Shown: piece after piece, positions 1-29,203 of the stretch
Position numbering within the stretch: position 1 is the first letter of the stretch
Layout: each line of letters starts with the position of its first letter
NCBI GenBank assembly: GCA_030587365.2
Contig: JAUQZE020000611.1
Span: 1 to 40,949 of the forward strand
Source of the DNA: Candidatus Freyarchaeota archaeon
GTDB taxonomy: Archaea; Asgardarchaeota; Jordiarchaeia; Jordiarchaeales; Jordiarchaeaceae
Length of the DNA stretch: 40,949 bases
Reading direction: 5' to 3'
Position numbers and translations under genes: made by a program
Notes under the pieces: generated by a model
The model's database searches: none
Told to the model about the DNA's origin: nothing
Seen by the model: the letters and a program-made list of their open reading frames with translations, nothing else

Positions 1-815
1 AAGAACACTTCAGGAGCCAAGAATCGCTCACTGGAGATGGTAATGGTCTCACCATCTGGCAACATATATGTCTTCTCCATACCCGCAACCTTCTCAGCCA
101 GCTTCAGCTCCTTCTCAGGATCCAGCGCAACGTAGCAAAGCTTCTCCTTTATATCACGAACAATTTCTCGCTCTGCACTCGACACCAGAGAGTAGCCTCT
201 TTGCCTCAGCAGTCGGCGGAGATACTCTGTAAGGTCCCTCCCCGCAAGATCTATCCTGGTGATAGCATGGGTAAGTGCAAAACCTTCGTATATGGGTACA
301 ATGTGAGTTACGCCGTCACCGGAGTCAATTACCAGTCCGGTGGTTCGTCCAGAAGCATACAGCGAGAGTACTGCCTGCATGGCAACATACATTGCAGGTA
401 CATTGAAGGTCTCGAACATGATCTCCGCCATCTTCTCACGATTCTTACGCGGATTCAAAGGCGCCTCAGTCAGTAGCACGGGGTGCTCAGCGGGGTCAAC
501 CCTCAAATCGTTAAAGAAAGTATAGTGCCAAATCTTCTCCATAGCGTCCCAATCATTAACCGTACCATGCTCAACGGGATAGACTAGTCTTAGTACGCCT
601 CGTAGGTTTAGGGCTTCTTCTCCGATGTAGTATTCTCGGGTGTAGTGTTCTACGTCGGTCATGATTGAGGCGTATTTTGGGTAGCCTATGCATGTGGGCC
701 ATACGGATCTTGGTTGGTCTTCTCCTGCGTATCCGTTTTTGGTTAGTCCTGTGCCGTTGTCTAGGACTAGGGGTTTTGCGGCTACGAGTTCTTCTTCGGG
801 TGGTCCTATCGCCAT
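1..815 (-). CDS. Actin-family protein, eukaryote-like (Asgard 'lokiactin' class). N-terminal ~271 codons; the 3' end lies beyond the left window edge
   Basis: The reverse-strand frame is open from ATG at 815-813 (GAGGA ~8 nt upstream) to base 1. Translation: [47 protein letters not shown]...[89 protein letters not shown]...[24 protein letters not shown]...[22 protein letters not shown]. These blocks are almost identical to eukaryotic actin as I recall it. The ORF is absent from the track because no stop codon falls inside the window. Confidence 0.93.
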
Positions 816-990: not shown

Positions 991-1391
991 TTTATCATCG
1001 ATATCATCCATAGAGTTGATGTTCCCTCTTTTGTTGAGGTTATACGAATGATGCCTGAGTGGTGGTGCAGGACCGTTCTAAGCATAGTTCTCGCTTAAAT
1101 TTTCATAATGAATATGAGGGATGCAGTGATTATTTTTTGAAGGTGGAAAACTGACTTTTGGTATTATCGGGGGCTTTTTGGGGTTAGATTTATTATTCCG
1201 TTTTGGGAATTTTAATTTGGTACTGATATGAGTTTCGTGCCCTGTTGGATTGTCCTGTGCCATTCTATCGTCTAGGGAAAAAGGCGCCACTCTCAGTTTG
1301 GTGGGTTGGTTTTAATATTTATTTGGAGTAATAATCTTCGGTGTTCGGTATTTAATTGTTGTTGGGTGTGTTGGATTTGAGTGATCCCTTG

Positions 1392-2057
1392 ATGATTGTT
1401 GAACGGGCTATCGGAGGCGTTGAGGCGCGTCGGATTATTTTAAAGGAGTTGTTAGAGGGCCCCAAAACGGGGTATGAGCTTAGGGATGCTTTGGCTAAGG
1501 AGTTGGGGGTTAATGTAGACGACATTAGTGACGCTAAATTGTATTTTAATCTGCAGGCGTTAGAGAATAGTGGGCTTATTAATCGGTATCGTGAATGGAA
1601 GAGTAAGTATGCAGAGATTGTTCCCACTATGGTGCAGGCGGTTCGTAGGTATCTGAATGTTAGGGCGCCTATTTTGTGTTTGTGCAGTTTAGACAGTGAG
1701 CCTCTACTGGTGAGGGAAGTGGGGCGCCGTTTAAGGGAGCAGACAGGAATCGACCCTGATAGCTATGTTTTTATTGCGGAGAGCGAGATGCGTACTAGGG
1801 TTGGTGGTAAGCCGGACAATGCGGAGATTATTTGGATTCCTGAGTATGCGATGCATGATTTTAAGAGGATTTACGAAGTAGCCAAGAGTATTGTGGAAAG
1901 GGAAATAGGCAGAAAAGAAGTCATTCTAGATGTGACTGATGGTACTCGGATTAGTGCTGTAGCTCTGCAGCAATTAGCTTGGGAGTACGGTCTGCGTCTC
2001 TTCTATCTTAAGGGTAAAAAGGACGAAGCCCGCAAAGTTGTTTGGATCCGTGAGTAA
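1392..2057 (+). CDS. Winged-helix transcriptional regulator with a C-terminal Rossmann-like (possibly CARF-like) domain
   Basis: The N-terminus RRIILKELLEGPKTGYELRDALAKELG...LQALENSGLI is a PadR/ArsR-type wHTH pattern. The C-terminal half alternates beta/alpha segments (ILCLCSL, YVFIAES, IIWIPE, EVILDVTDGTRISAVALQQLA, RLFYL), and the 'DVTDGTR' loop resembles the DxTGGTK/DxTHG loop of CARF domains. The ORF opens at TTG 1356; the first ATG at 1392 is preferred. The start is uncertain. Confidence 0.6.
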   Translation: MIVERAIGGVEARRIILKELLEGPKTGYELRDALAKELGVNVDDISDAKLYFNLQALENSGLINRYREWKSKYAEIVPTMVQAVRRYLNVRAPILCLCSLDSEPLLVREVGRRLREQTGIDPDSYVFIAESEMRTRVGGKPDNAEIIWIPEYAMHDFKRIYEVAKSIVEREIGRKEVILDVTDGTRISAVALQQLAWEYGLRLFYLKGKKDEARKVVWIRE

Positions 2058-2232
2058 AAATAGGCTTCAAATAGTATCTCTAGTAGCTCCTATATACGCT
2101 ATTTAAAGCATTTTTCATTATTTGCCTGAGAAATGTAAGCTTATAGGTGTTTGTCTAAAAAGAGTCTACTTGGGCCTTTGATGGGGGATAAAAAGAGTTT
2201 CTGTAATTTTTTAAATTCTGAAATATTCTTAA

Positions 2233-2955
2233 TTATTTCTGGAAGGCTTGATTCTTGTAGGTGGGTACGGTAGTTGTGATATTTAGTTGGCTGCAATATT
2301 GTACGTCTTTTTGGAATCCTATTTGTGTTAAGTATTGGGCGTTAGGCGTGTTGTATATTTTTTGGGTTATGTTTTTTGGAATGGGGCTGTTTTGAATGTA
2401 TTTTTTTATTATTTGGGCAGCAATGTAATCTTCTGGTGCGTATTCGTCAAGTCTTCCCACATGTATTATTGTGATTGGTCTTCTTGTGTTTAGAGCCATT
2501 CTTTTAGCTTTTTGGGCTACCGATTTGGCATTAATTAAGCAACCTATAAAAAGGTGTGGGGCGGCTCGGGCGTTGTTCGCTACTCTTGTAAGGTTAGTGG
2601 TGGTAAGTATTATGATTTTTCCTTTTACTATTTCCGGTTTGTATTCGAGTGGACTGTTTCCTAGTTGAAAATTTTGAATTTTGAACCCCTGTCTTTCTCC
2701 CGCGAGGACGACTTTGTCTCGGATTTCTTGTGCCAGTTTTTTTGCCTCTTCTACTGTTGCGGCTGTTATAATTTTTTTAGCCCCATTGTCTAATGCAGTA
2801 GTAATTGTTGTGCTGGCTCTTAAGGTGTCAACCAGCACTATAATGTGTTTTTTTTGTGCTGCTCTTAAGGCCCCTCGCGTCCCGAATGCGAGGTGAACTT
2901 CAAAGTCTCCCCCATCCTGATTTTTCTTTTCTGGAATTAGAGACATTTTTTTCAC
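2233..2955 (-). CDS. comB: 2-phosphosulfolactate phosphatase (ComB family)
   Basis: IIVLVDTLRASTTITTAL...LAGERQGFKIQNFQLGNSPLEY matches the ComB family pattern (VDVLRASTT...GER.G...GNSP). GTG 2955 overlaps the ComA stop (GTGA); an alternative ATG lies at 2946. Confidence 0.85.
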   Translation of the reverse strand: MKKMSLIPEKKNQDGGDFEVHLAFGTRGALRAAQKKHIIVLVDTLRASTTITTALDNGAKKIITAATVEEAKKLAQEIRDKVVLAGERQGFKIQNFQLGNSPLEYKPEIVKGKIIILTTTNLTRVANNARAAPHLFIGCLINAKSVAQKAKRMALNTRRPITIIHVGRLDEYAPEDYIAAQIIKKYIQNSPIPKNITQKIYNTPNAQYLTQIGFQKDVQYCSQLNITTTVPTYKNQAFQK

Positions 2956-3761
2956 TTTTTGGCTAGGAACTTAGTCATAGTATCCCCTCTTAGTCCTATG
3001 CGAAGTGTTTCGAGGGGAATAACATCGGTGGGTCTAATGTTTCCAAGGTTTACATTAGGTCCAAACCGTGTAATGAGCCATAACTGTTGGGATTTGAGTG
3101 GGGCTTCCCAGATAATTTTTTGGGATGGTATTTTGGCAACGATCTCTTCTATGAATGGTTCTTTTACTTTTCCTTCCTCGTCGTAGGGGCCTATTCCAAT
3201 TCCGCTTTCCCGAGCTTCGATGGTTACATAATCCGCCCCGGAGTCTAAATCGGTTTGAATTTGTTTTATTCGGTCGGAAATTTTGAGCTGGGCGTCCTCA
3301 GTTTTGATTTTTCTGCCCACTTCAGTTATTACGGTTTGAAACCCTAATTGTTTAGCCTTTTTTATTAGTTCCGATTTTTCCTGAGAGGATATATTAACAA
3401 CGCCTGTGGAAATTTCAATGGCGGTAAATCCTAGAGTTTTGAGTGTTTCTAGAAACGCTTCGGTTTTCCCTATAATTATAGCGGCTTCTAGGGCGGAACC
3501 TCCACTGAGTGTTTTTATTCCGTGGGAATGATAGAGTTTTAGCTTCTTTTTAAGTAGATTTTTAGGCTGTATGAGCCAAGTCGCCCATCCAAACTTGCAA
3601 TAATCAATATAATTCGCGGCACTTTCAATTACATCTTTTGTTGTAGGGAGGCCTTGGCCAGTATCAATAATGGCCGTTATTCCCTCGATTCTTGGTTTCT
3701 GTGTTCTATTTATCTCAGAGAGCTTGAAGATTTGTTTATTATGATTTGTCAAGCCTATCAC
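2952..3761 (-). CDS. comA: (2R)-phospho-3-sulfolactate synthase (ComA)
   Basis: YCKFGWATW, TIEARESGIGIGPYDEEGKVKE, EAPLKSQQLWLI and LETLRIGLRGDTMTK closely parallel M. jannaschii ComA (KFGWGTS, EGRESGKGKGLFDKEGKVKE, LETLRRGLRGDTFGK) from memory. The start is GTG. Confidence 0.9.
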   Translation of the reverse strand: MIGLTNHNKQIFKLSEINRTQKPRIEGITAIIDTGQGLPTTKDVIESAANYIDYCKFGWATWLIQPKNLLKKKLKLYHSHGIKTLSGGSALEAAIIIGKTEAFLETLKTLGFTAIEISTGVVNISSQEKSELIKKAKQLGFQTVITEVGRKIKTEDAQLKISDRIKQIQTDLDSGADYVTIEARESGIGIGPYDEEGKVKEPFIEEIVAKIPSQKIIWEAPLKSQQLWLITRFGPNVNLGNIRPTDVIPLETLRIGLRGDTMTKFLAKK

Positions 3762-3864
3762 CAGTAATTTTACTACCTTAGAAACCTACTGACTTTAGAC
3801 TTGAGCCCCTTTTTAATATTACTAGTTTTTTAAAAATGTTCTGGTTGGTTTTAATTACTAGTAT

Positions 3865-5139
3865 TTAGTACAGTAACTGGGGGTTCTCCTCTAAAATTTG
3901 GCTTATGGTTGCATCTTTAGATACTGGCCCAATTCTCTCGAAATTGTAATGCCTTTTTTCCCTTTCCACCCCCGTGTACCCTATAATTACCACATCACCT
4001 GAGTCGAATTGGTCTGCAAGTTCTATAGTTGCCTGAATGGCTATAGCTGCTGGAGACATTATTTGTATTTCGAAGATGCTTTCAGAGTTTTCGTAGATTT
4101 CCCTAGATTTCTCCTCGTTCACCTTGTGAAATAGCCCAAGAGTTTCCCTTACCACATATCTAACGTATGGGTAACAATTTTTAGGATATTCATTTTCAAT
4201 GATTTTTGCCCAAGTCGTTGAATTTATTCTCTGAGTGATTCTATCTTGCCCTTTTATGGCGGGGTCCACTATGGAGGCGCACCCTTCGGGTTGGACACAT
4301 ATAAGGTGTATGTATTCTCTAAGAAAGCCGTATTCCCTCAACCGTTCAATTGCCTGGTACCAACCTAGTAGACCATTACCACTCCCTGTGGGATGAATAT
4401 ACCAAACTTTTCCAGAATCCATTAAACTTCTCGCATGTTTTCCATATTTTTCATAAAGCTGAAAGTAGGCCTCATATGCCATAGTCTCTAAACCCGCTAT
4501 CTGGTCGGGATTTGCAAAACCTCCATCCAGTACATATGAAGTTTCTTCAGCCATTCTGATTGAAAGAGATGTAGCGTCAACGTATCGCCCATTAACCAAT
4601 ATAATACGGGTTCTTTCATTTTCATCATCGAAATTAATCAAATTTTCCATTTCTGTAGGTACGAATATGGCTAATTTTCTGAAGGCCCTCTGGTTATATA
4701 ATCCATAAGACGTTGCTGTGTTTCCCGTACTCGAAAGTGTAATATTTGGTATGTTGCGTTCCTTGTAAACCGATAAGGCTACCGATGCGCTTCTGTCTTT
4801 TATAGTTCCAGTAGGGTTAGTACTTTCATCCTTTACAAGAAAAGTAACATCACTGCGTCCCGCCATTCTAGCTATTGTTTGGTCCTCGTAAAGATTGGTT
4901 CGCCCCTCCCCCAAGTGAATCATATTTGAAGCAGGTTTTAGTAGGGGGAGCACTTTCTGAAAAATCCACATTCCAGGAAGGCCTCTTTCGGTTAAATCAC
5001 TTAATTTTTTAGGTCTGAGATTAGGATAACAATATTGAAGTATTCCCCCACATTCTTCACAGGAGGTCTTGTGCCCCACCGCAGGGGAAAGATTACCGCA
5101 CTCGAAGCACTCGTAGAAGATTTCACGCAGATATATCAA
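3865..5139 (-). CDS. Threonine-synthase-family PLP enzyme; cysteate synthase candidate by context
   Basis: There is an N-terminal Zn-ribbon (CFECGN...CEECGG), as in archaeal ThrC and cysteate synthase. The PLP-lysine motif is TNPTGTIKDRSAS (compare TGSFKDR). The protein is 424 aa. It sits between comDE and comAB on the same strand. The start is TTG. Confidence 0.75.
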   Translation of the reverse strand: MIYLREIFYECFECGNLSPAVGHKTSCEECGGILQYCYPNLRPKKLSDLTERGLPGMWIFQKVLPLLKPASNMIHLGEGRTNLYEDQTIARMAGRSDVTFLVKDESTNPTGTIKDRSASVALSVYKERNIPNITLSSTGNTATSYGLYNQRAFRKLAIFVPTEMENLINFDDENERTRIILVNGRYVDATSLSIRMAEETSYVLDGGFANPDQIAGLETMAYEAYFQLYEKYGKHARSLMDSGKVWYIHPTGSGNGLLGWYQAIERLREYGFLREYIHLICVQPEGCASIVDPAIKGQDRITQRINSTTWAKIIENEYPKNCYPYVRYVVRETLGLFHKVNEEKSREIYENSESIFEIQIMSPAAIAIQATIELADQFDSGDVVIIGYTGVEREKRHYNFERIGPVSKDATISQILEENPQLLY

Positions 5140-5310
5140 CTCCTTCTATTTAACGTTCTCTTAAATTTGAGGATTGGTTTTTAAAACTTGTTGGCCTTGA
5201 GAATTTTTCTTTCTCTATTCCCCTCTTTAAGTCTATTGCTTGTTTTTCCAATTCCTTAGAATATGTAAAAACATGTCTTTTCTATTTGCGGGAAAAGTTC
5301 GAGGATGCAA

Positions 5311-5892
5311 TTACGTCTTACCAAGTTTTTTAGGCTTATTCACTTTTTTAACCGCATTTTCAAATCTGTTCTTTATCTCTTGAGGGTGCATTTCTATTAT
5401 GGGCACGTCGGCGTTTCCTTTTTCGACTTTTGCAATAATTACTGTTAACCCTTTTTTAGATTTCCTATAAGCTTCTCTCAGTTTTTGAGGAGACTCCACC
5501 ACAAAAACCCTTTTAATCCCCGCAGCCCGCGCCAGAGCCGCTAAATCTGTTTTACCTGCAGTATAACTTGGTTGCCCCCCTGTCGACCCATAGGACTTAT
5601 TATCAAAAATAATTAATGTTAAATTTCTAGGAGACCAATTGGCTATCGTTACCAGAGAACCCAAGTTCATTAGGATAGACCCATCCCCATCCATGACTAC
5701 CACACGTTTATTTACCGATAAGGATAGTCCCAAACCTATGGAGGAAGCCAAACCCATAGAACCAAGCATATAGAAGTTTTCAGGTCTATCCCCTACACTA
5801 TATAGTTCTCTTGAGGGGAAGCCAAGATTGCAAATCACCAACTCCTTCTCAAGCTCTTCCACAATATTTTTAATAGCTTCTATTCTCTTCAT
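5311..5892 (-). CDS. comE: Sulfopyruvate decarboxylase beta subunit (ComE); the homologous phosphonopyruvate decarboxylase cannot be excluded by eye
   Basis: The ThDP-binding motif is VVMDGDGSILMNLGSLVT. At 193 aa the size matches ComE. It overlaps comD by 23 nt. Confidence 0.8.
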   Translation of the reverse strand: MKRIEAIKNIVEELEKELVICNLGFPSRELYSVGDRPENFYMLGSMGLASSIGLGLSLSVNKRVVVMDGDGSILMNLGSLVTIANWSPRNLTLIIFDNKSYGSTGGQPSYTAGKTDLAALARAAGIKRVFVVESPQKLREAYRKSKKGLTVIIAKVEKGNADVPIIEMHPQEIKNRFENAVKKVNKPKKLGKT

Positions 5893-6382
5893 TTTTCATC
5901 AATTCCATTTCTATTAGTACCGCTACTGGAACCTTATTACTATGAAATGACTTTTTCGCTCTTTCAAAAGCCTCAGGAATTTGTTCCGCATTTTTTGGCG
6001 TATAATGGGGGGCACCTATAGCGTCCAATAGCGCTGGAGTAGCTTTTCCCATAGGTATCTGTGCGGGGATTGTTTCTCCTTTTCCACCCCGCTGAGCTAT
6101 TAGAATTAGAAGTGGTATTTTGAAAACCATATTAAGAGAAGCAAGTGCATTAATTGAGTTGCCTAGACCACTATTTTGCATAATTAATGCTGGTGTTTTA
6201 CCCCCCAAATACGCTCCCGCAGCTATCCCCACACCCTCCTCTTCTCGAGTTACAGGCACATGCAATATTTCTTTTGCCTCATCCAGCATATCTAAGAGAT
6301 TTTTAAAAAGACTACTGGGAACAGATACAACAAAATCAACACCGAATCGAATAAGTTCTCTGAAAATAATATTTGATATCAT
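5870..6382 (-). CDS. comD: Sulfopyruvate decarboxylase alpha subunit (ComD)
   Basis: A 170-aa ThDP-enzyme N-terminal (PYR) domain: VPSSLFKNLLD...TREEEGVGIAAGAYLGGKTPALIMQNSGLGN. It is directly coupled to comE. Confidence 0.8.
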   Translation of the reverse strand: MISNIIFRELIRFGVDFVVSVPSSLFKNLLDMLDEAKEILHVPVTREEEGVGIAAGAYLGGKTPALIMQNSGLGNSINALASLNMVFKIPLLILIAQRGGKGETIPAQIPMGKATPALLDAIGAPHYTPKNAEQIPEAFERAKKSFHSNKVPVAVLIEMELMKNEENRSY

Positions 6383-6497
6383 AAATAAAAGCTCCCTGAG
6401 CGTAAATAATCAGAACTGTCACATTTTAGAAACTTAACCTATTTTAAATACTTTTCAGTTTTATCCTCATTTTTACTTGAAAAACATGAACCATTTT

Positions 6498-7181
6498 TCA
6501 CGTAGTGATACTGCTTTTGTGTAGGTTTTTAAGCGCTACCGCAATACGATAAAACGCAGTAAAATTGGCCAGTATTCCCGCAATTATTAAACCACAAATT
6601 GGCAATCTGGCGTCTAATGGATAAAGAATGGAAAATACGAAGAGAATGAACAATCTTTCTGATCTACCTGCTACACCGCGATCCAAATCTAGGTTATAGA
6701 CTTCCCCCTTAGATCTTGTATAACTCACCATTACGAATCCCGCTAAAGAAATAATCACCCACAGATTGAGCGGAACTAAAAAGTAAAAGTTTGCCGCTTC
6801 CCCCCAAAATAAGAATCCTAAAATCAGAATAAAATCAGAGTATCTATCTGCTAAAGAGTCCAGAATACCGCCTCTGGGCGAGGCGGAGCATGTAATTTTG
6901 GCTAGAGCGCCATCCACCCCATCTAATAGACCAGTAATAAATACTAAAACTCCGTAAAGAACGGGAAAACCATAAGAAATCGTGATAGATGCGAGTAAAG
7001 ATAAACCAAGTGCGAGGATAGTAACTTGATTAGGGGTTAAACCTGCACTTGCAAAACCCTTTGCTATTTTATATATTATTGGTTTGAAGATGCGCCGGAT
7101 TCTATATTTAGAAGGCAAACCGTGCCTCTCCAAACAAATTCTACACCGATGGAAATAAGAGATTTTTATACAGTACCGCAT
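6498..7181 (-). CDS. CDP-alcohol phosphatidyltransferase family membrane protein
   Basis: The full family signature D-G-x2-A-[RK]-x8-G-x3-D-x3-D is present in LLDGVDGALAKITCSASPRGGILDSLADRYSD. There are several hydrophobic helices. The longest ORF (to 7268) overlaps the upstream gene by 128 nt. Internal Met30 at 7181 is preferred, which still leaves a 41-nt overlap. Confidence 0.8.
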   Translation of the reverse strand: MRYCIKISYFHRCRICLERHGLPSKYRIRRIFKPIIYKIAKGFASAGLTPNQVTILALGLSLLASITISYGFPVLYGVLVFITGLLDGVDGALAKITCSASPRGGILDSLADRYSDFILILGFLFWGEAANFYFLVPLNLWVIISLAGFVMVSYTRSKGEVYNLDLDRGVAGRSERLFILFVFSILYPLDARLPICGLIIAGILANFTAFYRIAVALKNLHKSSITT

Positions 7182-8166
7182 TGGAATATTGATTATTCTC
7201 CTCCACAATAGCGTTTCCAAAAAGCACAGAGTTCTGGATAATCGCGCTAGAGGAAATCTCACACTCACTCATCATAGACACAAAGGGGCCTACTTTGCTC
7301 ATAGGGCCAATCTGGCAATTAGATTCGAGTACGGTGGGACCACTTATGATAGAAGTTCTATCTAACCCAATTTTCCACTTTTTCTTTATAGGTCCTCTAA
7401 CTTGTTTCGAGTTCTTGACATAGAAATTGTTTTGAGGTATCAATCCTTTTATAAGTGCAAACTTGTTCGCCCTTAGAACATCAGATATAGAGTCCACATC
7501 GAACCAATAGTTTTTAGAAACATCAATGAAGCAAACTGGTTGGCCGTCTCGGATGAAGAGATTTAATGCATCCAAAAGTATATTTAATCCATTTTCAAGG
7601 GCCTCGTGAATGTAATGAAAAATCGAGGAGTTGCATAGAAGAAGGCTAACACATAGATGCGGCTCCCCCCCTTTTAAAATAGGTTTACGGAATCCAGAAA
7701 CGCGACCATATTTTAACCCCGTGGGGCAGGTATACACAGTAGTTCCCAATTTGGAGTCAGAGGCGATATCTACAGCAATAGTCACTCCCTCCCTTGAATG
7801 TTTTTTCTTCACAGTTTCGATCGCCCTAGGATCTATAATAAAATCTCCAGGGCTCACAAAAAAATTATTTGAAGAAATTTCTTCCTCCGCAGCAAGTAAT
7901 GAATGTATGGGCCCTAAATTATAGTTTTTAGACTCCCTATACCTTATCGACACCTCGTACTGAGCACCATCCCCTAATTGATTTCTTATCTTACTTCCAA
8001 GATGCCCTGTCACAATTATGAAATCGGAAATTCCAGCCTTCTTATATGCCAGAATAAGGTGCTCAATTATGGGACGATTAGCTATGGGGATGAGCGGCTT
8101 GGGAAGGAATTGAGATAGGGCACCCATACGTGTACCCTTGCCAGCGGCCAGTATTACAGCTTCCAA
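7141..8166 (-). CDS. Nucleotidyltransferase (NDP-sugar/alcohol pyrophosphorylase-like) with a C-terminal left-handed beta-helix
   Basis: MEAVILAAGKGTRMG...LPKPLIPIANRPIIEH is the classic NTP-transferase G-loop. The C-terminus has hexapeptide-like repeats (ISGPTVLESNCQIGPMSKVGPFVSMMSECEISSSAIIQNSVLFGNAIVEEN). The start is TTG, with GAGGT ~9 nt upstream. Confidence 0.8.
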   Translation of the reverse strand: MEAVILAAGKGTRMGALSQFLPKPLIPIANRPIIEHLILAYKKAGISDFIIVTGHLGSKIRNQLGDGAQYEVSIRYRESKNYNLGPIHSLLAAEEEISSNNFFVSPGDFIIDPRAIETVKKKHSREGVTIAVDIASDSKLGTTVYTCPTGLKYGRVSGFRKPILKGGEPHLCVSLLLCNSSIFHYIHEALENGLNILLDALNLFIRDGQPVCFIDVSKNYWFDVDSISDVLRANKFALIKGLIPQNNFYVKNSKQVRGPIKKKWKIGLDRTSIISGPTVLESNCQIGPMSKVGPFVSMMSECEISSSAIIQNSVLFGNAIVEENNQYSNAVLYKNLLFPSV

Positions 8167-8532
8167 TTCTAAAAACCTCAGAAGAATAATATGTAAACTA
8201 ATTTTCGTTAGTGAAAAGTGGTTTATTACGGTTTCTTTTCGGTAACCTTAATTATCCTTTTTCCGATCTAGTATCCTATCCCTCCCTTTTCCCTAAAAAT
8301 TTGGATGTCTCTCTGATAGAGCCTTCTTAGCAACATACGTCTTGGTGGCTTTCTGCCCCATTTTCATTCCTTGGAGTACCAGACGATGGTGGGGGCTAAG
8401 ATGTCAAACATTTTTTTAACTTTTGAATTAACCAGAATGATATAGATATTTTTCCAAACGGGTTCATTGGATTCCTCATGTTTTAAATAGAGATGTTGCC
8501 TCTAAAATTATAATACTCGTCAGGAAAAAATA

Positions 8533-9183
8533 TTGGGGCTTAATGGATTGAGGAAAGTTAAGATTGATCCTGAAAATCCGGACATGAAGATCATTAGAGA
8601 AGCGGGAAGGCTACTGAGAGAAGGAAAACTGGTAGCGTATCCAACAGACACAGTTTATGGTTTAGGGGCAAATCCGTTTGATGTTAAAGCAGTTCAAAAT
8701 TTATTGAGAGCCAAAAGAAGAAAGTGGGAGTTGGGGCTACCCCTACTGGTATCAGACGATAGTATAGCCAGAAAAGTAGCTGAGTTCACACCGGACGCAG
8801 ACCTACTCTCAAAAAATTTTTGGCCCGGAGGATTAACTCTTATACTAAAACCCCTCATTAAAATACCTAGCATTGTTACAGGGGGCAAGGATAGTATTGC
8901 TATTAGGCTACCCGCCCATAAAGTTCCACAGTTACTAGCAAAATGTTTAAATGGAATTTTAATAGGAACCAGTGCAAATATCTCAGGTCAACCTCCGGCA
9001 TTGAACGCAAAACAGGTTCAAGAACAAATCGGAAAAGATACGGATATGATATTAGATGGTGGAGAAACTTTAAATGCTCAACCTTCCACAATTATAGATT
9101 TAACCCAAAGACCAGCAGTAATTCTTCGCGAAGGCATAATCGGTGCGCGGGTGCTTAAAAAATTTATAGATGTCAAAGATTAG
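8533..9183 (+). CDS. L-threonylcarbamoyladenylate synthase, single-domain YrdC/TsaC type
   Basis: KIDPENPD...LREGKLVAYPTDTVYGLGANPFD...IAIRLPAH...GTSANISGQPP are YrdC/Sua5 motifs. At 216 aa there is no Sua5 C-terminal domain. The start is TTG at 8533; the first ATG (8584) would remove the conserved N-terminus. Confidence 0.85.
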   Translation: MGLNGLRKVKIDPENPDMKIIREAGRLLREGKLVAYPTDTVYGLGANPFDVKAVQNLLRAKRRKWELGLPLLVSDDSIARKVAEFTPDADLLSKNFWPGGLTLILKPLIKIPSIVTGGKDSIAIRLPAHKVPQLLAKCLNGILIGTSANISGQPPALNAKQVQEQIGKDTDMILDGGETLNAQPSTIIDLTQRPAVILREGIIGARVLKKFIDVKD

Positions 9184-18058: not shown

Positions 18059-19333
18059 TTAACTGAGTATATCTGAGAACCTTACACTCCTTGAGTCATT
18101 TATACAGGGCATAAAGAAGAACGCAGCAGGCTCTATACTGATTTTATTTCCATTCAGTATCTCCTTTTGAATTGCTCTAATTAAACTGATCCCCAATGGG
18201 ACTTGTTCAATTGAGTAGTTTGCGAAAAACGCCGATGTGAAAAGCCGTCCCTGCCTTACCAAAAATTGTATAACCAGAGGGTTTAAATCATATCTTTTTT
18301 CCCAAGGGTTATTAGGAGTAATAACTATTCTTCTACTCCGCTTTGATTCCTCTAATTTTCTTTTGGCCAATTTTATTTGATCTATTGTAACAGATTCCCC
18401 TTCATCCGTTTTAGCTTTGTAGAATCTCAGACATTTTCCTAATTCCCCCTCTCCATTTAAAATTCCTTCCACTTGATGTTCAAACTCTTCTAACTTAACG
18501 TCAACTTCCTCTAACTTAAACCCGAGATATAAATAAAATTGCCCTCCCTCTTGAGGCTCCGAATACTTTGCAAACTTGTATTCTAATTCCGACAACACCT
18601 CACGCAAATTTTGAGATCTTAAAAGTATAGGTCCTGCCAAGTTCTCATTATTGATTCGTGGATTAGAATTGGAAGTAGGTAGCGAACCGAAAAAGCTTTG
18701 CCTTAATTCATTAATTGAAGTTTCATATATGTGTGCCGACCCCGAAATTGTGGTTATGGTGCCCAAAGCCCTTTTACCACCAAATCTACTTGCAACTTCT
18801 GTTAAAAAAACCGTATAAATACCAGCAACATCGTCGGGATACGCTCGGGCCATATCATTACTTCTAATATATACGGTCGAATGAATTTTTGAGCCTACTT
18901 TGTGAAAAAGCACAATATTAATACAGGGAGGGTTAGTGCTTAAAATGTCCGTCGGTGGATTCCAGAACTGGGCAAAAGCTACATTTTTCCCACCACTTAA
19001 CTGATTTTTAATGTAATCCAGCTGGTTAAACGTGAATCTTTTTCTCATAGCCCATCCATAACTATATACATGTTCTCCCTTCTCAGAACTAATATATTGG
19101 GGAATATAGCTTTCAATAAGCGTATCCTTACTCAGCCCAATATAGTTTACTGGAACAAAATTTCCACTTTGCCAATCACTTAGATGAATCGTAGCACAAA
19201 AAGTTTCCCTAGTTTCCTGTTTTTTATCCTCAGTTATCTCCTTTATCCCTTTTTCGAGGATTGTGTTAATGCAACTTCTCCAAGCAACATCTATATTTCT
19301 GGCTCGAATCAAATAAGGGCCATAGAAGCTCAT
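18059..19333 (-). CDS. Tandem-duplicated thymidylate-synthase-like protein: archaeal ThyA-type N-domain plus a degenerate ThyA-like C-domain
   Basis: The N half has FWNPPTDILSTNPPCINIVLFHKVGSKIHSTVYIRSNDMARAYPDDVAG...SGSAHIYE (catalytic PC and RSxD blocks). The C half repeats the layout (GPILLRSQNL..., SRRIVITPNNPWEKRYDLNPLVIQFLVRQGRLFTSAFFANYS...) but has L in place of the Cys and ANYS in place of RSND. Confidence 0.7.
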   Translation of the reverse strand: MSFYGPYLIRARNIDVAWRSCINTILEKGIKEITEDKKQETRETFCATIHLSDWQSGNFVPVNYIGLSKDTLIESYIPQYISSEKGEHVYSYGWAMRKRFTFNQLDYIKNQLSGGKNVAFAQFWNPPTDILSTNPPCINIVLFHKVGSKIHSTVYIRSNDMARAYPDDVAGIYTVFLTEVASRFGGKRALGTITTISGSAHIYETSINELRQSFFGSLPTSNSNPRINNENLAGPILLRSQNLREVLSELEYKFAKYSEPQEGGQFYLYLGFKLEEVDVKLEEFEHQVEGILNGEGELGKCLRFYKAKTDEGESVTIDQIKLAKRKLEESKRSRRIVITPNNPWEKRYDLNPLVIQFLVRQGRLFTSAFFANYSIEQVPLGISLIRAIQKEILNGNKISIEPAAFFFMPCINDSRSVRFSDILS

Positions 19334-19335
19334 TT

Positions 19336-20835
19336 TTACTCACGACCAAGTTTTAAAGCATAATAGGGATGGGGAGGCTTTGGGTAAATCCCAACCGTAT
19401 TTATGTTCTCGTCCGCAATTGCAGCTTCAACAGCCGCTACCTCTCTGAATATAGCCTCTGCATTTTTTATTGGACCATAAAGATTAATGTCTATTCCATA
19501 AAGGGAAGGAAGAGCATAGTCAAAAGAAAAATCCAGATTTTTTAATTCACTGATACTCTTTGATAGCCTTGATTGCAGATTATGGATGCCAATACATACA
19601 GGATAACCATAGCAATTCTTAAATAACCAAGCTGCATGCAAAGCACTTATTGAACCTGCCCCCAGAATAGAAACACCAGGATCAATAATTGGCTTCATGA
19701 TTAACCCCTCCATAAATTCAATTATTTCTCTGAACCGATTGATCCTTGAAGGTAGTTTTACATCAAAGGGCAAAATTATAGAATATTCTATCCGCCCCAT
19801 TTCGCCAATCATAGCCTTTTCTCTTTTATCCACGCCGCTAACCGAATTGTATATAACTCTACCCTCTAAACCCAAATCTTTTGCTACTCCCATGGCTCCT
19901 ATTCTTGCTTCCAAAACTGGCGAATCAAGAATTATTGGTGAGTCTGTGATATCTGCAACAAATAAAAGGTATCTTGTTAAAGCCTCAGAAGTTTCTCCAA
20001 CTATGTGTACCATTGTGGGAATTTCGTATTTTAAAGAATTCTCCTCCTGTTTCCGAATTTGCTCCTCAGCCTTAGTCTTATCAAAGACGCCTTCACTATG
20101 ATTAACTACCAATTTATCTCCTCTATAAAACATGGTTCCCGCTAAAACTACGGGATACTCCCCCCTCTGCCCGCCTATCTTAATTCCACATATATCATAA
20201 ACTCTTAGTTCTCCAGTAAATATCAAGGGATTTAATAGAGATATACCCTTATCAAGAAAGCTTTTATTTTCTTCTTGAAACCGCTTTATTCCTTCACTCC
20301 AATCATATTCAACTTGTGTTAATGGAAGAATAGGCTCCTCAGGAAATGGAGACATGTTTTGTGCATTAAGTTCATTGATTATAGACATCAATTTTTGAAC
20401 GTTTGTTTCTCCTCGTGCATCCACCACCTTAACGATTTGGCTTTGAAATCTTTTAACAAATTTATTCGGATCGTCTCCCCTGAAATAATTTGGATGCAAA
20501 ACAGGTATAGTACCCTCACTTCCGATAATTCTATAATTTTCATCAATCCCATTATTATAGAGCGAAATAATAGTTTGCCCCGGTTCATGGCCAACTACAC
20601 GTTCACCGCAGACTATGAGGAATCTAATATTTGGGTTTGAAGCCAAATTTTGTAAAATCTTCGCTATTCCACTATTCTCCGTCTCACAGAAACCTACAAT
20701 GGCAATTTTGTCACTCATTTTGGCTAACTCTTTCGGCAAATCGTAAGACCCACATGTAACTATAGCGACGGCCGCCTTTTCGTTTATAACAACATAGTCA
20801 CCAGCAATGAATGGCCACTTTGACATAAACAACAT
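19336..20835 (-). CDS. Fused MtrA-like corrinoid domain / MtrH-like methyl-H4MPT methyltransferase (CmtA-like, soluble)
   Basis: The N-terminus WPFIAGDYVV...IVGFCETENSGIAKILQNLASNPNIRFLIVCGERVVGHEPGQTIISLYNNGID is the MtrA pattern, including the GH corrinoid ligand region. The C-terminus ICGIKIGGQRGEYPVVLAGTMFY...GVFDKTKAEEQIRKQEE...PIILDS is the MtrH pattern. There is no hydrophobic anchor between or after the two domains. Confidence 0.8.
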   Translation of the reverse strand: MLFMSKWPFIAGDYVVINEKAAVAIVTCGSYDLPKELAKMSDKIAIVGFCETENSGIAKILQNLASNPNIRFLIVCGERVVGHEPGQTIISLYNNGIDENYRIIGSEGTIPVLHPNYFRGDDPNKFVKRFQSQIVKVVDARGETNVQKLMSIINELNAQNMSPFPEEPILPLTQVEYDWSEGIKRFQEENKSFLDKGISLLNPLIFTGELRVYDICGIKIGGQRGEYPVVLAGTMFYRGDKLVVNHSEGVFDKTKAEEQIRKQEENSLKYEIPTMVHIVGETSEALTRYLLFVADITDSPIILDSPVLEARIGAMGVAKDLGLEGRVIYNSVSGVDKREKAMIGEMGRIEYSIILPFDVKLPSRINRFREIIEFMEGLIMKPIIDPGVSILGAGSISALHAAWLFKNCYGYPVCIGIHNLQSRLSKSISELKNLDFSFDYALPSLYGIDINLYGPIKNAEAIFREVAAVEAAIADENINTVGIYPKPPHPYYALKLGRE

Positions 20836-28507: not shown

Positions 28508-29203
28508 GTGTTCGAAGTGCAAAAAAGGCTGTTTGATGAGGCAATTTCCAGAAAAGATTTTATTGAAGCATATAGGATAGCAAAATACGTTTTGCAAGAT
28601 GAGAAAAAAGCTTGTGATCTTTACACAGCTGCTTTGGGTTCTATTGGAAAATTGATACAAACTGGTATGGACTTAAAAGAGAGGGGTGATTATGAGGAGG
28701 CGGCTAAACTTTTTTTGCGCTGTGCTGAATTTTTTGAAGGGGAGAGAGATTACGGTAGAGCAAGCGGGTTTTTTATAGAAGTTGGTGATTGCTTCTCAGC
28801 GACAAATAATGCGAACAAGGCGCGAGACAGTTTTGTGCGCGGATACGAACTTGCCATCCTGGACTGGAAAAATTTTAATCTTGCTAAGAAAATCGCTTCT
28901 CTGAGTGTGTTGCTCTTTGTCCTGACTTCTTTAATTAATGAAGATATGATAGGAGCAAAAAAGATCTTTAACCTAGTAAGATCTTCTTTAGAAGAGAAAG
29001 AGCGCCGAAAGTTGCGTAGGCAAGACTATTACTGGTTAGCCAAACAGATTTACACCTCTCTTCTTAAAGAGAGTAAACTAGACTGGGTGAATCTTAAAAA
29101 TATGCAAGCAAGATACGAGAAAACCGATTTTTTAACTCTGATGCAGGATCTATCCAAATCATATTATACAGTAAATAAGTTTCTAGAGAAATTTCAAAAA
29201 TGA
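28508..29203 (+). CDS. TPR-like helical-repeat protein, alpha-SNAP-like periodicity; function unknown
   Basis: A 231-aa all-helical pattern: ACDLYTAAL...GDYEEAAKLFLRCAEFFEGERDYGRASGFFIEVGDCFSATNNANKARDSFVRGYELA. The start is GTG and there is no upstream ATG. Confidence 0.6.
   Translation: MFEVQKRLFDEAISRKDFIEAYRIAKYVLQDEKKACDLYTAALGSIGKLIQTGMDLKERGDYEEAAKLFLRCAEFFEGERDYGRASGFFIEVGDCFSATNNANKARDSFVRGYELAILDWKNFNLAKKIASLSVLLFVLTSLINEDMIGAKKIFNLVRSSLEEKERRKLRRQDYYWLAKQIYTSLLKESKLDWVNLKNMQARYEKTDFLTLMQDLSKSYYTVNKFLEKFQK

Follow-up and report, generated by a model that had tools for sequence, protein, structure and literature searches.

Coenzyme M (CoM) is rare outside methane and alkane metabolism. 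Class I methanogens make it by a pathway that depends on phosphoenolpyruvate (PEP) and proceeds through ComA, ComB, ComC, ComDE and ComF. ComF is methanogenesis marker 16 (MMP16), a COG1900-plus-ferredoxin protein that genetics identified as the main CoM synthase of Methanosarcina acetivorans (PMC12068725). Among the Asgard archaea, passages of Sun et al. (2021) report comA, comB, comC and comDE in metagenome-assembled genomes (MAGs) of Sifarchaeia and Jordarchaeia (comC in some of the Jordarchaeia MAGs), together with a two-subunit MtrAH and no methyl-coenzyme M reductase (MCR), and a passage of the supplement calls the enzyme of the last CoM step unknown (PMC9723677). Passages of Valentin-Alvarado et al. 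(2024) describe all genes for CoM synthesis in Freyarchaeia despite the lack of MCR, as well as fused MtrA-like/MtrH proteins (PMC11291895). Here we describe a 40,949-nucleotide stretch of an Asgard genome (contig JAUQZE020000611.1; hereafter the window) in which com genes lie next to a nucleotidylyltransferase gene (NT) and a CDP-alcohol phosphatidyltransferase gene (PT). Seven co-directional open reading frames (ORFs) on the minus strand at 2233-8166 encode, in order, NT, PT, ComD, ComE, a ThrC-like pyridoxal phosphate (PLP) enzyme (ThrCL), ComA and ComB. The locus probably consists of two functionally independent units side by side, namely an NT-PT pair that is spread across the Asgard archaea and a CoM cluster that was inserted beside it in the Jordarchaeia and Freyarchaeia.

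The cluster resembles the class I methanogen pathway in that ComA, ComD and ComE pass their archaeal equivalog models, ComB is recognised at the Pfam level, and the clusters of close relatives include MMP16. It differs in that ComC is missing from the cluster, comF is present as a relic, the cluster includes an additional ThrC-family PLP gene, and the host lineage lacks MCR according to passages of the published accounts (PMC9723677, PMC11291895). The CoM gene sets described in those passages for Jordarchaeia, Sifarchaeia and Freyarchaeia share comA, comB, comDE and MtrAH with this locus and were linked to a proposed non-methanogenic methylotrophy; the cluster layout, ThrCL and the comF relic are unmentioned in the passages searched.

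The com genes and the slot they occupy

Protein and locus matches assigned the window to the Jordarchaeia lineage. ThrCL matched a protein from a Candidatus Jordarchaeaceae MAG at 100% identity, and the region shared 97-100% protein identity with the Jordarchaeia isolate QZM_A3 (contig JAHAWU010000003.1). Protein families were assigned with Pfam and NCBIfam, the NCBIfam equivalog cut-offs serving as the criterion, and genes reported below as missing from the window were sought among its ORFs of at least 120 aa. All seven ORFs were present at 2233-8166, and the models confirmed the gene order and family names given by the original prediction.

ComA, a phosphosulfolactate synthase of 269 aa (2952..3761), passed the archaeal ComA model TIGR03849 (293.3 bits, cut-off 280) and matched PF02679 with 294 bits. 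The alpha subunit of sulfopyruvate decarboxylase, ComD (170 aa, 5870..6382), and its beta subunit, ComE (193 aa, 5311..5892), passed TIGR03845 (189.3 against 147.95) and TIGR03846 (250.5 against 221.5), respectively, and their genes overlap by 23 nt. ComB (240 aa, 2233..2955), whose gene overlaps comA by 4 nt, was assigned to the 2-phosphosulfolactate phosphatase family at the Pfam level only (PF04029, 200 bits, cut-off 26.4); its best scores with the NCBIfam ComB equivalogs were 155-163 bits, including 155 against a cut-off of 175 for TIGR00298. These assignments support the predicted route to sulfoacetaldehyde and CoM. A phosphonate pathway had been the other candidate for ComDE. The phosphonopyruvate decarboxylase (Ppd) model TIGR03297, with a cut-off of 312.5 bits, gave 155 bits for ComE and 119 bits for ComD, which argues for sulfopyruvate decarboxylase, and PEP mutase was not found in the window, as predicted. 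The phosphonate reading was therefore rejected. Neither ComC (Ldh_2) nor MCR was found in the window; the absence of ComC from the cluster had also been predicted. By contrast, the view that a com cluster is unexpected beside an Asgard actin gene did not hold, since the window belongs to the Jordarchaeia, for which, as for the Freyarchaeia, CoM genes and MtrAH have been published (PMC9723677, PMC11291895). The CoM reading is thus correct, although it had been published for this lineage before.

All seven genes were under purifying selection when strains that lack comF were compared (ratio of nonsynonymous to synonymous substitution rates, dN/dS, 0.05-0.19 at dS of about 0.1-0.16), comB giving 0.16 against the locus L014 and ThrCL 0.11-0.12. 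The cluster is therefore maintained and not decaying.

To place the cluster in its chromosomal context, loci were collected from one genome per GTDB species by a scan with a PT alignment (a working alignment of 7 sequences) and by context look-ups, and were mapped by tblastn, yielding 32 distinct archaeal loci. In 29 of them NT immediately preceded PT. The pair sits in a conserved block that consists of a phosphoribosyltransferase gene (PRT), CGI-121, Sua5 on the opposite strand, NT, PT, a slot of variable content, a PadR-like gene on the opposite strand and actin, and this block is kept in Jord-, Frey-, Atabey- and Thorarchaeia and partly in Baldrarchaeia. ComD and ComE followed PT in only 11 loci, all from Jordarchaeia or Freyarchaeia. 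All 11 distinct loci of these two classes carry NT-PT-comDE, so the synteny that the original prediction had proposed to look for in relatives does exist. Another 18 NT-PT loci, from Thor-, Atabey- and Baldrarchaeia, however, lack ComA, ComD and ComE. In Thorarchaeota the slot after PT holds a 139-144 aa ORF of no known family followed by FG-GAP, HD and RNase III genes; in Atabeyarchaeia the same kind of ORF is followed by a lone ComB-like gene; and in Baldrarchaeum the slot holds CofE, CofD, CofC and a radical SAM gene of F420 biosynthesis. Because the pair is kept beside unrelated slot genes where ComA, ComD and ComE are missing, its adjacency to com points to insertion and is not evidence for a sulfonated lipid. 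Because the whole flanking block is syntenic, the conserved adjacency amounts to one inherited event and not to repeated association. These gene orders are most simply read as an insertion of the com genes into a variable slot beside an older NT-PT pair whose function would be independent of them. In this model NT-PT would be an Asgard-wide, tightly spaced pair within an old syntenic housekeeping block, the CoM cluster would have entered the slot downstream of PT in the lineage of Jord- and Freyarchaeia, and its ancestral order would have been comD-comE-comF-thrCL-comA-comB.

The PT-comD spacer (6383..6497, minus strand) has the predicted length of 115 bp. A six-spacer alignment showed an A/T-rich block in it that is kept between Jordarchaeia and Freyarchaeum and has no Rfam match; this block could be a candidate archaeal promoter for comD.

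Among the slot contents of the other classes, the conserved ORF directly after PT, predicted to be soluble and without a Pfam or NCBIfam family, was seen in Atabeyarchaeum (L009:8707-9141) and in Thorarchaeota (L020:8682-9101) and in none of the Jord- or Freyarchaeia loci; no homologue of the 144-aa form was found in the window. In Atabeyarchaeia a lone ComB-family phosphatase (PF04029) lies between NT-PT and actin (L009:9210-9971, L021:9217-9915), with ComA and ComDE not nearby, and this phosphatase might act on the PT product. In Baldrarchaeum yapensis, CofE, CofD, a Dus-like gene, CofC and the radical SAM gene follow NT-PT directly (L038:8579-13284), from which it appears that the slot has repeatedly hosted cofactor genes.

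The ThrC-family enzyme between comE and comA

ThrCL (424 aa, 3865..5139, minus strand) is a ThrC-family PLP enzyme (PF00291, 106 bits) that scored under every NCBIfam cut-off. Its best family matches were threonine synthase models, with PRK08197 giving 137 bits against 303 and TIGR00260 giving 68.5 against 167, and the cysteate synthase model TIGR03844 gave 62.6 against 324.9. A profile search of 1.84 billion representative sequences returned only two members of its clade, with 873 and 364 bits, and the next match had 163. The nearest relatives outside the clade are intermediate between the models for threonine synthase and cysteate synthase; one of them has cysteate synthase as its best match, and two are located near decarboxylases that depend on thiamine pyrophosphate (TPP). 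The contig of the nearest outgroup, P0143, is too short for its context to inform.

The PLP lysine (K114), the STGNTA loop and a four-cysteine zinc ribbon at the N-terminus are all retained in ThrCL. The motif E-G-x-K-T of the family reads A-G-L-E-T in ThrCL (A215/E218), although its E and K are present in 140 and 141, respectively, of the 151 nearest representatives. Where Thermus ThrC has its phosphate-binding Arg160, members of the clade have Gln or Met in the alignment, whereas 85 of the 151 have Arg; the clade also carries a specific insertion of its own. All clade members with known context lie between comE or comF and comA, and ThrCL was not found at the com locus of Freyarchaeum deiterrae.

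A similar arrangement is known from the cs-comDE-MMP16 cluster (MA3297-MA3299) of the phosphoserine-dependent CoM pathway in M. acetivorans, in which a ThrC-family enzyme likewise lies beside comDE and MMP16. The ancestral Jordarchaeum order comD-comE-comF-thrCL has the same neighbours. ThrCL differs from that cysteate synthase in its low model score, in the substitutions specific to its clade and in its coexistence with ComA and ComB. Our best, tentative guess casts ThrCL as a cysteate-synthase-like enzyme, which would provide a route to sulfopyruvate without ComC. Phosphoserine and sulfite would give cysteate, and transamination would then give sulfopyruvate. Put more broadly, ThrCL is a possible, if far from certain, previously unrecognised enzyme of the CoM pathway, either as an independently evolved cysteate synthase or as a PLP-dependent bypass of ComC or ComF. 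The bacterial CoM pathway (Xcb) was rejected as a model for ThrCL, as it uses other enzyme families.

The alternative that ThrCL is a housekeeping threonine synthase which merely happens to lie inside the com cluster would account for its best family matches, for the conserved PLP lysine and STGNT loop and for the threonine synthase label that NCBI gives to two orthologues. It is nevertheless unlikely. The protein falls under every threonine synthase cut-off, it replaces the near-universal E and K and the commonly conserved Arg described above, its relatives are intermediate between the two synthase models with two of them near TPP decarboxylases, and the clade is restricted to com clusters of Jord- and Freyarchaeia and is not at the F. 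deiterrae locus. In addition, the KEGG Orthology table of Sun et al. lists 2-3 thrC matches in columns that appear to be comD-bearing MAGs (PMC9723677).

Two further loci bear on this family. In a MAG labelled Thermoproteota that carries a Jordarchaeales-type cluster, ThrCL is split over two frames (L024:9951-11196), either as a frameshift pseudogene or through an assembly error. In SRR31012008 (L005:1016-11747), a PLP enzyme intermediate between ThrC and cysteate synthase (P0009) is encoded with an aldehyde dehydrogenase, an MFS transporter, a ThiF-rhodanese protein, a ComD/ComE-like decarboxylase and a zinc alcohol dehydrogenase; this cluster may represent a separate sulfonate pathway.

The comF relic and coenzyme M as the probable end product

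The spacer between comE and ThrCL (5140..5310, minus strand, 171 bp) aligned with the final ~100 nt of comF from relatives and is a 3' relic of a deleted comF gene. The match is clearest at 5201-5245, where the spacer translation KQAIDLKRGIEKEKF corresponds to KLAIDLKRRIEKGEF, residues 404-418 of MMP16. The same relic was found in two further loci (L012 and L013), and no intact ComF was found in the window. Relatives at ~80% identity have a gene of 430-434 aa between comE and the ThrC-like gene; these are L001-L003, which NCBI names Freyrarchaeum guaymaensis, and L016, Jordarchaeum madagascariense. Their gene product is MMP16 (TIGR03287, 484 bits, cut-off 364). A reading of this HcyBio gene as an L-ASST of the homocysteine pathway was rejected, as the protein is a TIGR03287 MMP16 with a ferredoxin insert. 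In F. deiterrae the 362-bp gap between comE and comA gave a weaker match to comF that contains stops (E 0.01), suggesting that comF has possibly decayed there as well. Other, deep-branching Jordarchaeales carry MMP16 away from comDE (L046:5152-9263, L048:4395-9248). At those two loci MMP16/ComF adjoins an SBF-family transporter and a TauE/SafE-type sulfite/sulfonate exporter.

Outside 2233-8166 and 11 kb from the com cluster, the window encodes a fused MtrA-MtrH protein of 499 aa (19336..20835, minus strand), a candidate CoM-linked methyltransferase. Residues 5-170 matched PF04208 with 134.5 bits and residues 211-477 matched PF02007 with 194.6 bits, and the protein matches the MtrAH proteins described for the lineage of Jord- and Freyarchaeia. 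MtrE and MT2, like MCR, were not found in the window. A 424-aa ORF at 18059-19333 (minus strand) lies directly downstream of MtrA-MtrH; its sole match, with 44 bits over residues 87-212, is to part of a thymidylate synthase domain.

These genes suggest the following pathway. ComA would join sulfite to PEP, and ComB would remove the phosphate to leave sulfolactate. Oxidation of sulfolactate to sulfopyruvate would fall to a dehydrogenase encoded elsewhere, either ComC or an enzyme of the malate/lactate dehydrogenase type. ThrCL may also supply sulfopyruvate, and ComDE would decarboxylate it to sulfoacetaldehyde. ComF would carry out the step from aldehyde to thiol in close relatives. Because comF was deleted from the cluster of the source organism, this step must have another source there, which could be a copy of comF elsewhere, another COG1900 enzyme or a sulfide-dependent bypass of the kind seen in Methanosarcina. 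In M. acetivorans, MMP16 is dispensable at sulfide concentrations of at least 0.4 mM (PMC12068725). That some strains have lost comF and yet keep the other genes under selection fits this sulfide-dependent dispensability. CoM as the end product in the source organism is inferred from relatives and from the literature, and it would serve the non-methanogenic methyl-transfer metabolism of the lineage.

ComA and ComB also make sulfolactate in organisms without CoM, such as Bacillus. The cluster may thus have ceased to make CoM here, with sulfolactate or sulfoacetaldehyde passing to another product such as a sulfolactate solute, taurine, isethionate or sulfoacetate. The deletion of comF in the window and in the closest strains, its possible decay in F. 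deiterrae and the lack of ComC in the window are all consistent with this alternative, as is the purifying selection on the remaining genes, which indicates that some product is still needed. We consider it improbable, however, since the cluster contains no aminotransferase, reductase or dehydrogenase that would lead to another end product, and the MMP16 locus of other Jordarchaeales makes a second copy elsewhere in the source genome possible. Moreover, loss of MMP16 is tolerated by M. acetivorans when sulfide is available (PMC12068725), and passages of the published accounts report comC in some Jordarchaeia MAGs and the complete pathway in Freyarchaeia (PMC9723677, PMC11291895).

The NT-PT pair and the significance of the locus

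PT (6498..7133, minus strand, 211 aa) is a CDP-alcohol phosphatidyltransferase (PF01066) that resembles archaetidylinositol phosphate (AIP) synthase. The longest ORF for the gene, listed as 6498-7268, overlaps NT by 128 nt. The gene was confirmed and its start revised: the most likely start is TTG 7133, 7 nt past the NT stop, because homology begins ~45 codons into the long ORF and the genes of relatives are called there. The best NCBIfam match was AIP synthase (NF040950, 137 bits, cut-off 180), and the best matches in the PDB were, in order, AF2299, mycobacterial PIP synthase and DIPPS. The catalytic motif D71-G-x-D74-G-x2-A-K...G88-x3-D92-x3-D96 is intact, with K replacing R. Orthologues at 36-45% identity occur throughout the Asgard classes, and the 24 columns that are invariant in 18 Asgard sequences, including the catalytic Asp motif and several arginines, are also invariant in Jord- and Freyarchaeia. 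At residue 79 (~6897-6899) Jordarchaeaceae and Freyarchaeum have Lys in place of the conserved Arg of DGxxAR, which P0040 and all other aligned Asgard orthologues retain.

NT (7141..8166, minus strand, 341 aa) is a sugar- or alcohol-phosphate nucleotidylyltransferase (PF00483, 80.7 bits) with a C-terminal left-handed beta-helix (LbH), a tail to which only weak LbH matches were obtained. It scored 145 against a cut-off of 292 for the Arch_glmU subfamily, and its best PDB match was ST0452 (2ggo). The pair resembles the AIPS, bacterial PIPS and IPCT-DIPPS systems in the PT motif D-x2-D-G-x2-A-(R/K)...G-x3-D-x3-D and in that its best matches lie in this group, and it resembles IPCT-DIPPS in that an NTP transferase adjoins PT. 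It differs from all three in that PT falls below every equivalog cut-off, and from IPCT-DIPPS in that NT and PT are separate genes and NT, with its LbH tail, is nearer to ST0452 and GMPPB than to IPCT. Di-myo-inositol phosphate (DIP) is a solute of hyperthermophiles and is not expected in Asgard archaea of marine sediment or wetland soil. DIP synthesis by IPCT/DIPPS was rejected, as NT and PT gave 51 and 68 bits with the bifunctional equivalog NF041135 (cut-off 580) and Asgard MAGs from both of these habitats carry the pair. Judging from homology, NT-PT most likely makes a polar head group of the inositol-phosphate type, because the closest characterised relatives of PT transfer inositol phosphate and NT resembles sugar-1-phosphate nucleotidylyltransferases. 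The literature on Asgard inositol lipids yielded nothing on this gene pair.

The original prediction had speculated that NT activates, and PT transfers, a sulfonated alcohol. In its narrowest form, this would mean that the pair was co-opted in Jord- and Freyarchaeia alone to turn a com-derived sulfonate (phosphosulfolactate or phosphorylated isethionate) into a sulfonated lipid head group or solute. CofC and CofD, which act on 2-phospholactate, offer an analogy that makes the chemistry plausible, the adjacency and orientation of NT-PT-comD-comE are conserved in 11/11 loci with spacers down to 25-68 bp, and PT has its Arg-to-Lys change in Jordarchaeaceae and Freyarchaeum. The proposal is nonetheless highly improbable, given that the pair holds the same syntenic position in the 18 loci without ComA, ComD or ComE, that the slot holds unrelated genes in other lineages and the synteny of the flanking block reduces the adjacency to a single inherited event, that all 24 invariant PT residues are retained in Jord- and Freyarchaeia, that the Arg-to-Lys change is not found in P0040, a PT of 53% identity that groups with the Jord- and Freyarchaeia sequences, that the com cluster lacks a kinase for a sulfonated alcohol, and that relatives carry comF, which speaks for CoM as the product.

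Several observations weigh against the interpretation of the locus as an inositol-type pair beside an independent CoM cluster. The PT-comD spacer is only 25-68 bp long in deep-branching Jordarchaeales, with NT-PT and comDE co-directional, so that the two units may be co-transcribed. ComC and an intact ComF are missing from the window, and an MtrAH without MtrE may not use CoM. ThrCL does not pass the cysteate synthase model, and a near-universal motif in the region of its active site is altered. PT stays below the AIP synthase cut-off (137 against 180).

The remaining features of the window are peripheral to these questions. The Asgard actin is genuine and runs on the minus strand from 815 to 3, the window edge leaving residues 1-271 of 384. 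A PadR-like regulator (1356-2057, plus strand) is divergent from this actin gene (3-815, minus strand), and the divergent pairing is kept in loci of Jord-, Frey-, Atabey-, Thor- and Baldrarchaeia. A 231-aa ORF (28508-29203, plus strand) weakly resembles the eukaryotic SNAP (soluble NSF attachment protein) family, its score of 25.4 bits lying at the cut-off of 25. No tRNA genes were found, and Rfam gave no match at E ≤ 1 across 1300-8700, so no riboswitch or other RNA was identified in the spacers. Scans for bacterial promoters and terminators, which are ill-suited to archaea, showed no excess over shuffled sequences (22 hits against 16.6 ± 4.1 and 6 against 6.5, respectively).

The new points that emerge are modest: a hybrid cluster layout, a comF relic, a PLP enzyme without close relatives, and the finding that NT-PT is a pair conserved across the Asgard archaea, where it represents a lipid-type module. 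The ancestral cluster combined gene types of both known archaeal routes to CoM, that is, ComA and ComB together with a ThrC-family enzyme beside ComDE and ComF, and ThrCL is a candidate for a new PLP enzyme of sulfonate pathways. The cluster as a whole supports the published proposals that Jord- and Freyarchaeia use CoM for non-methanogenic methyl transfer.

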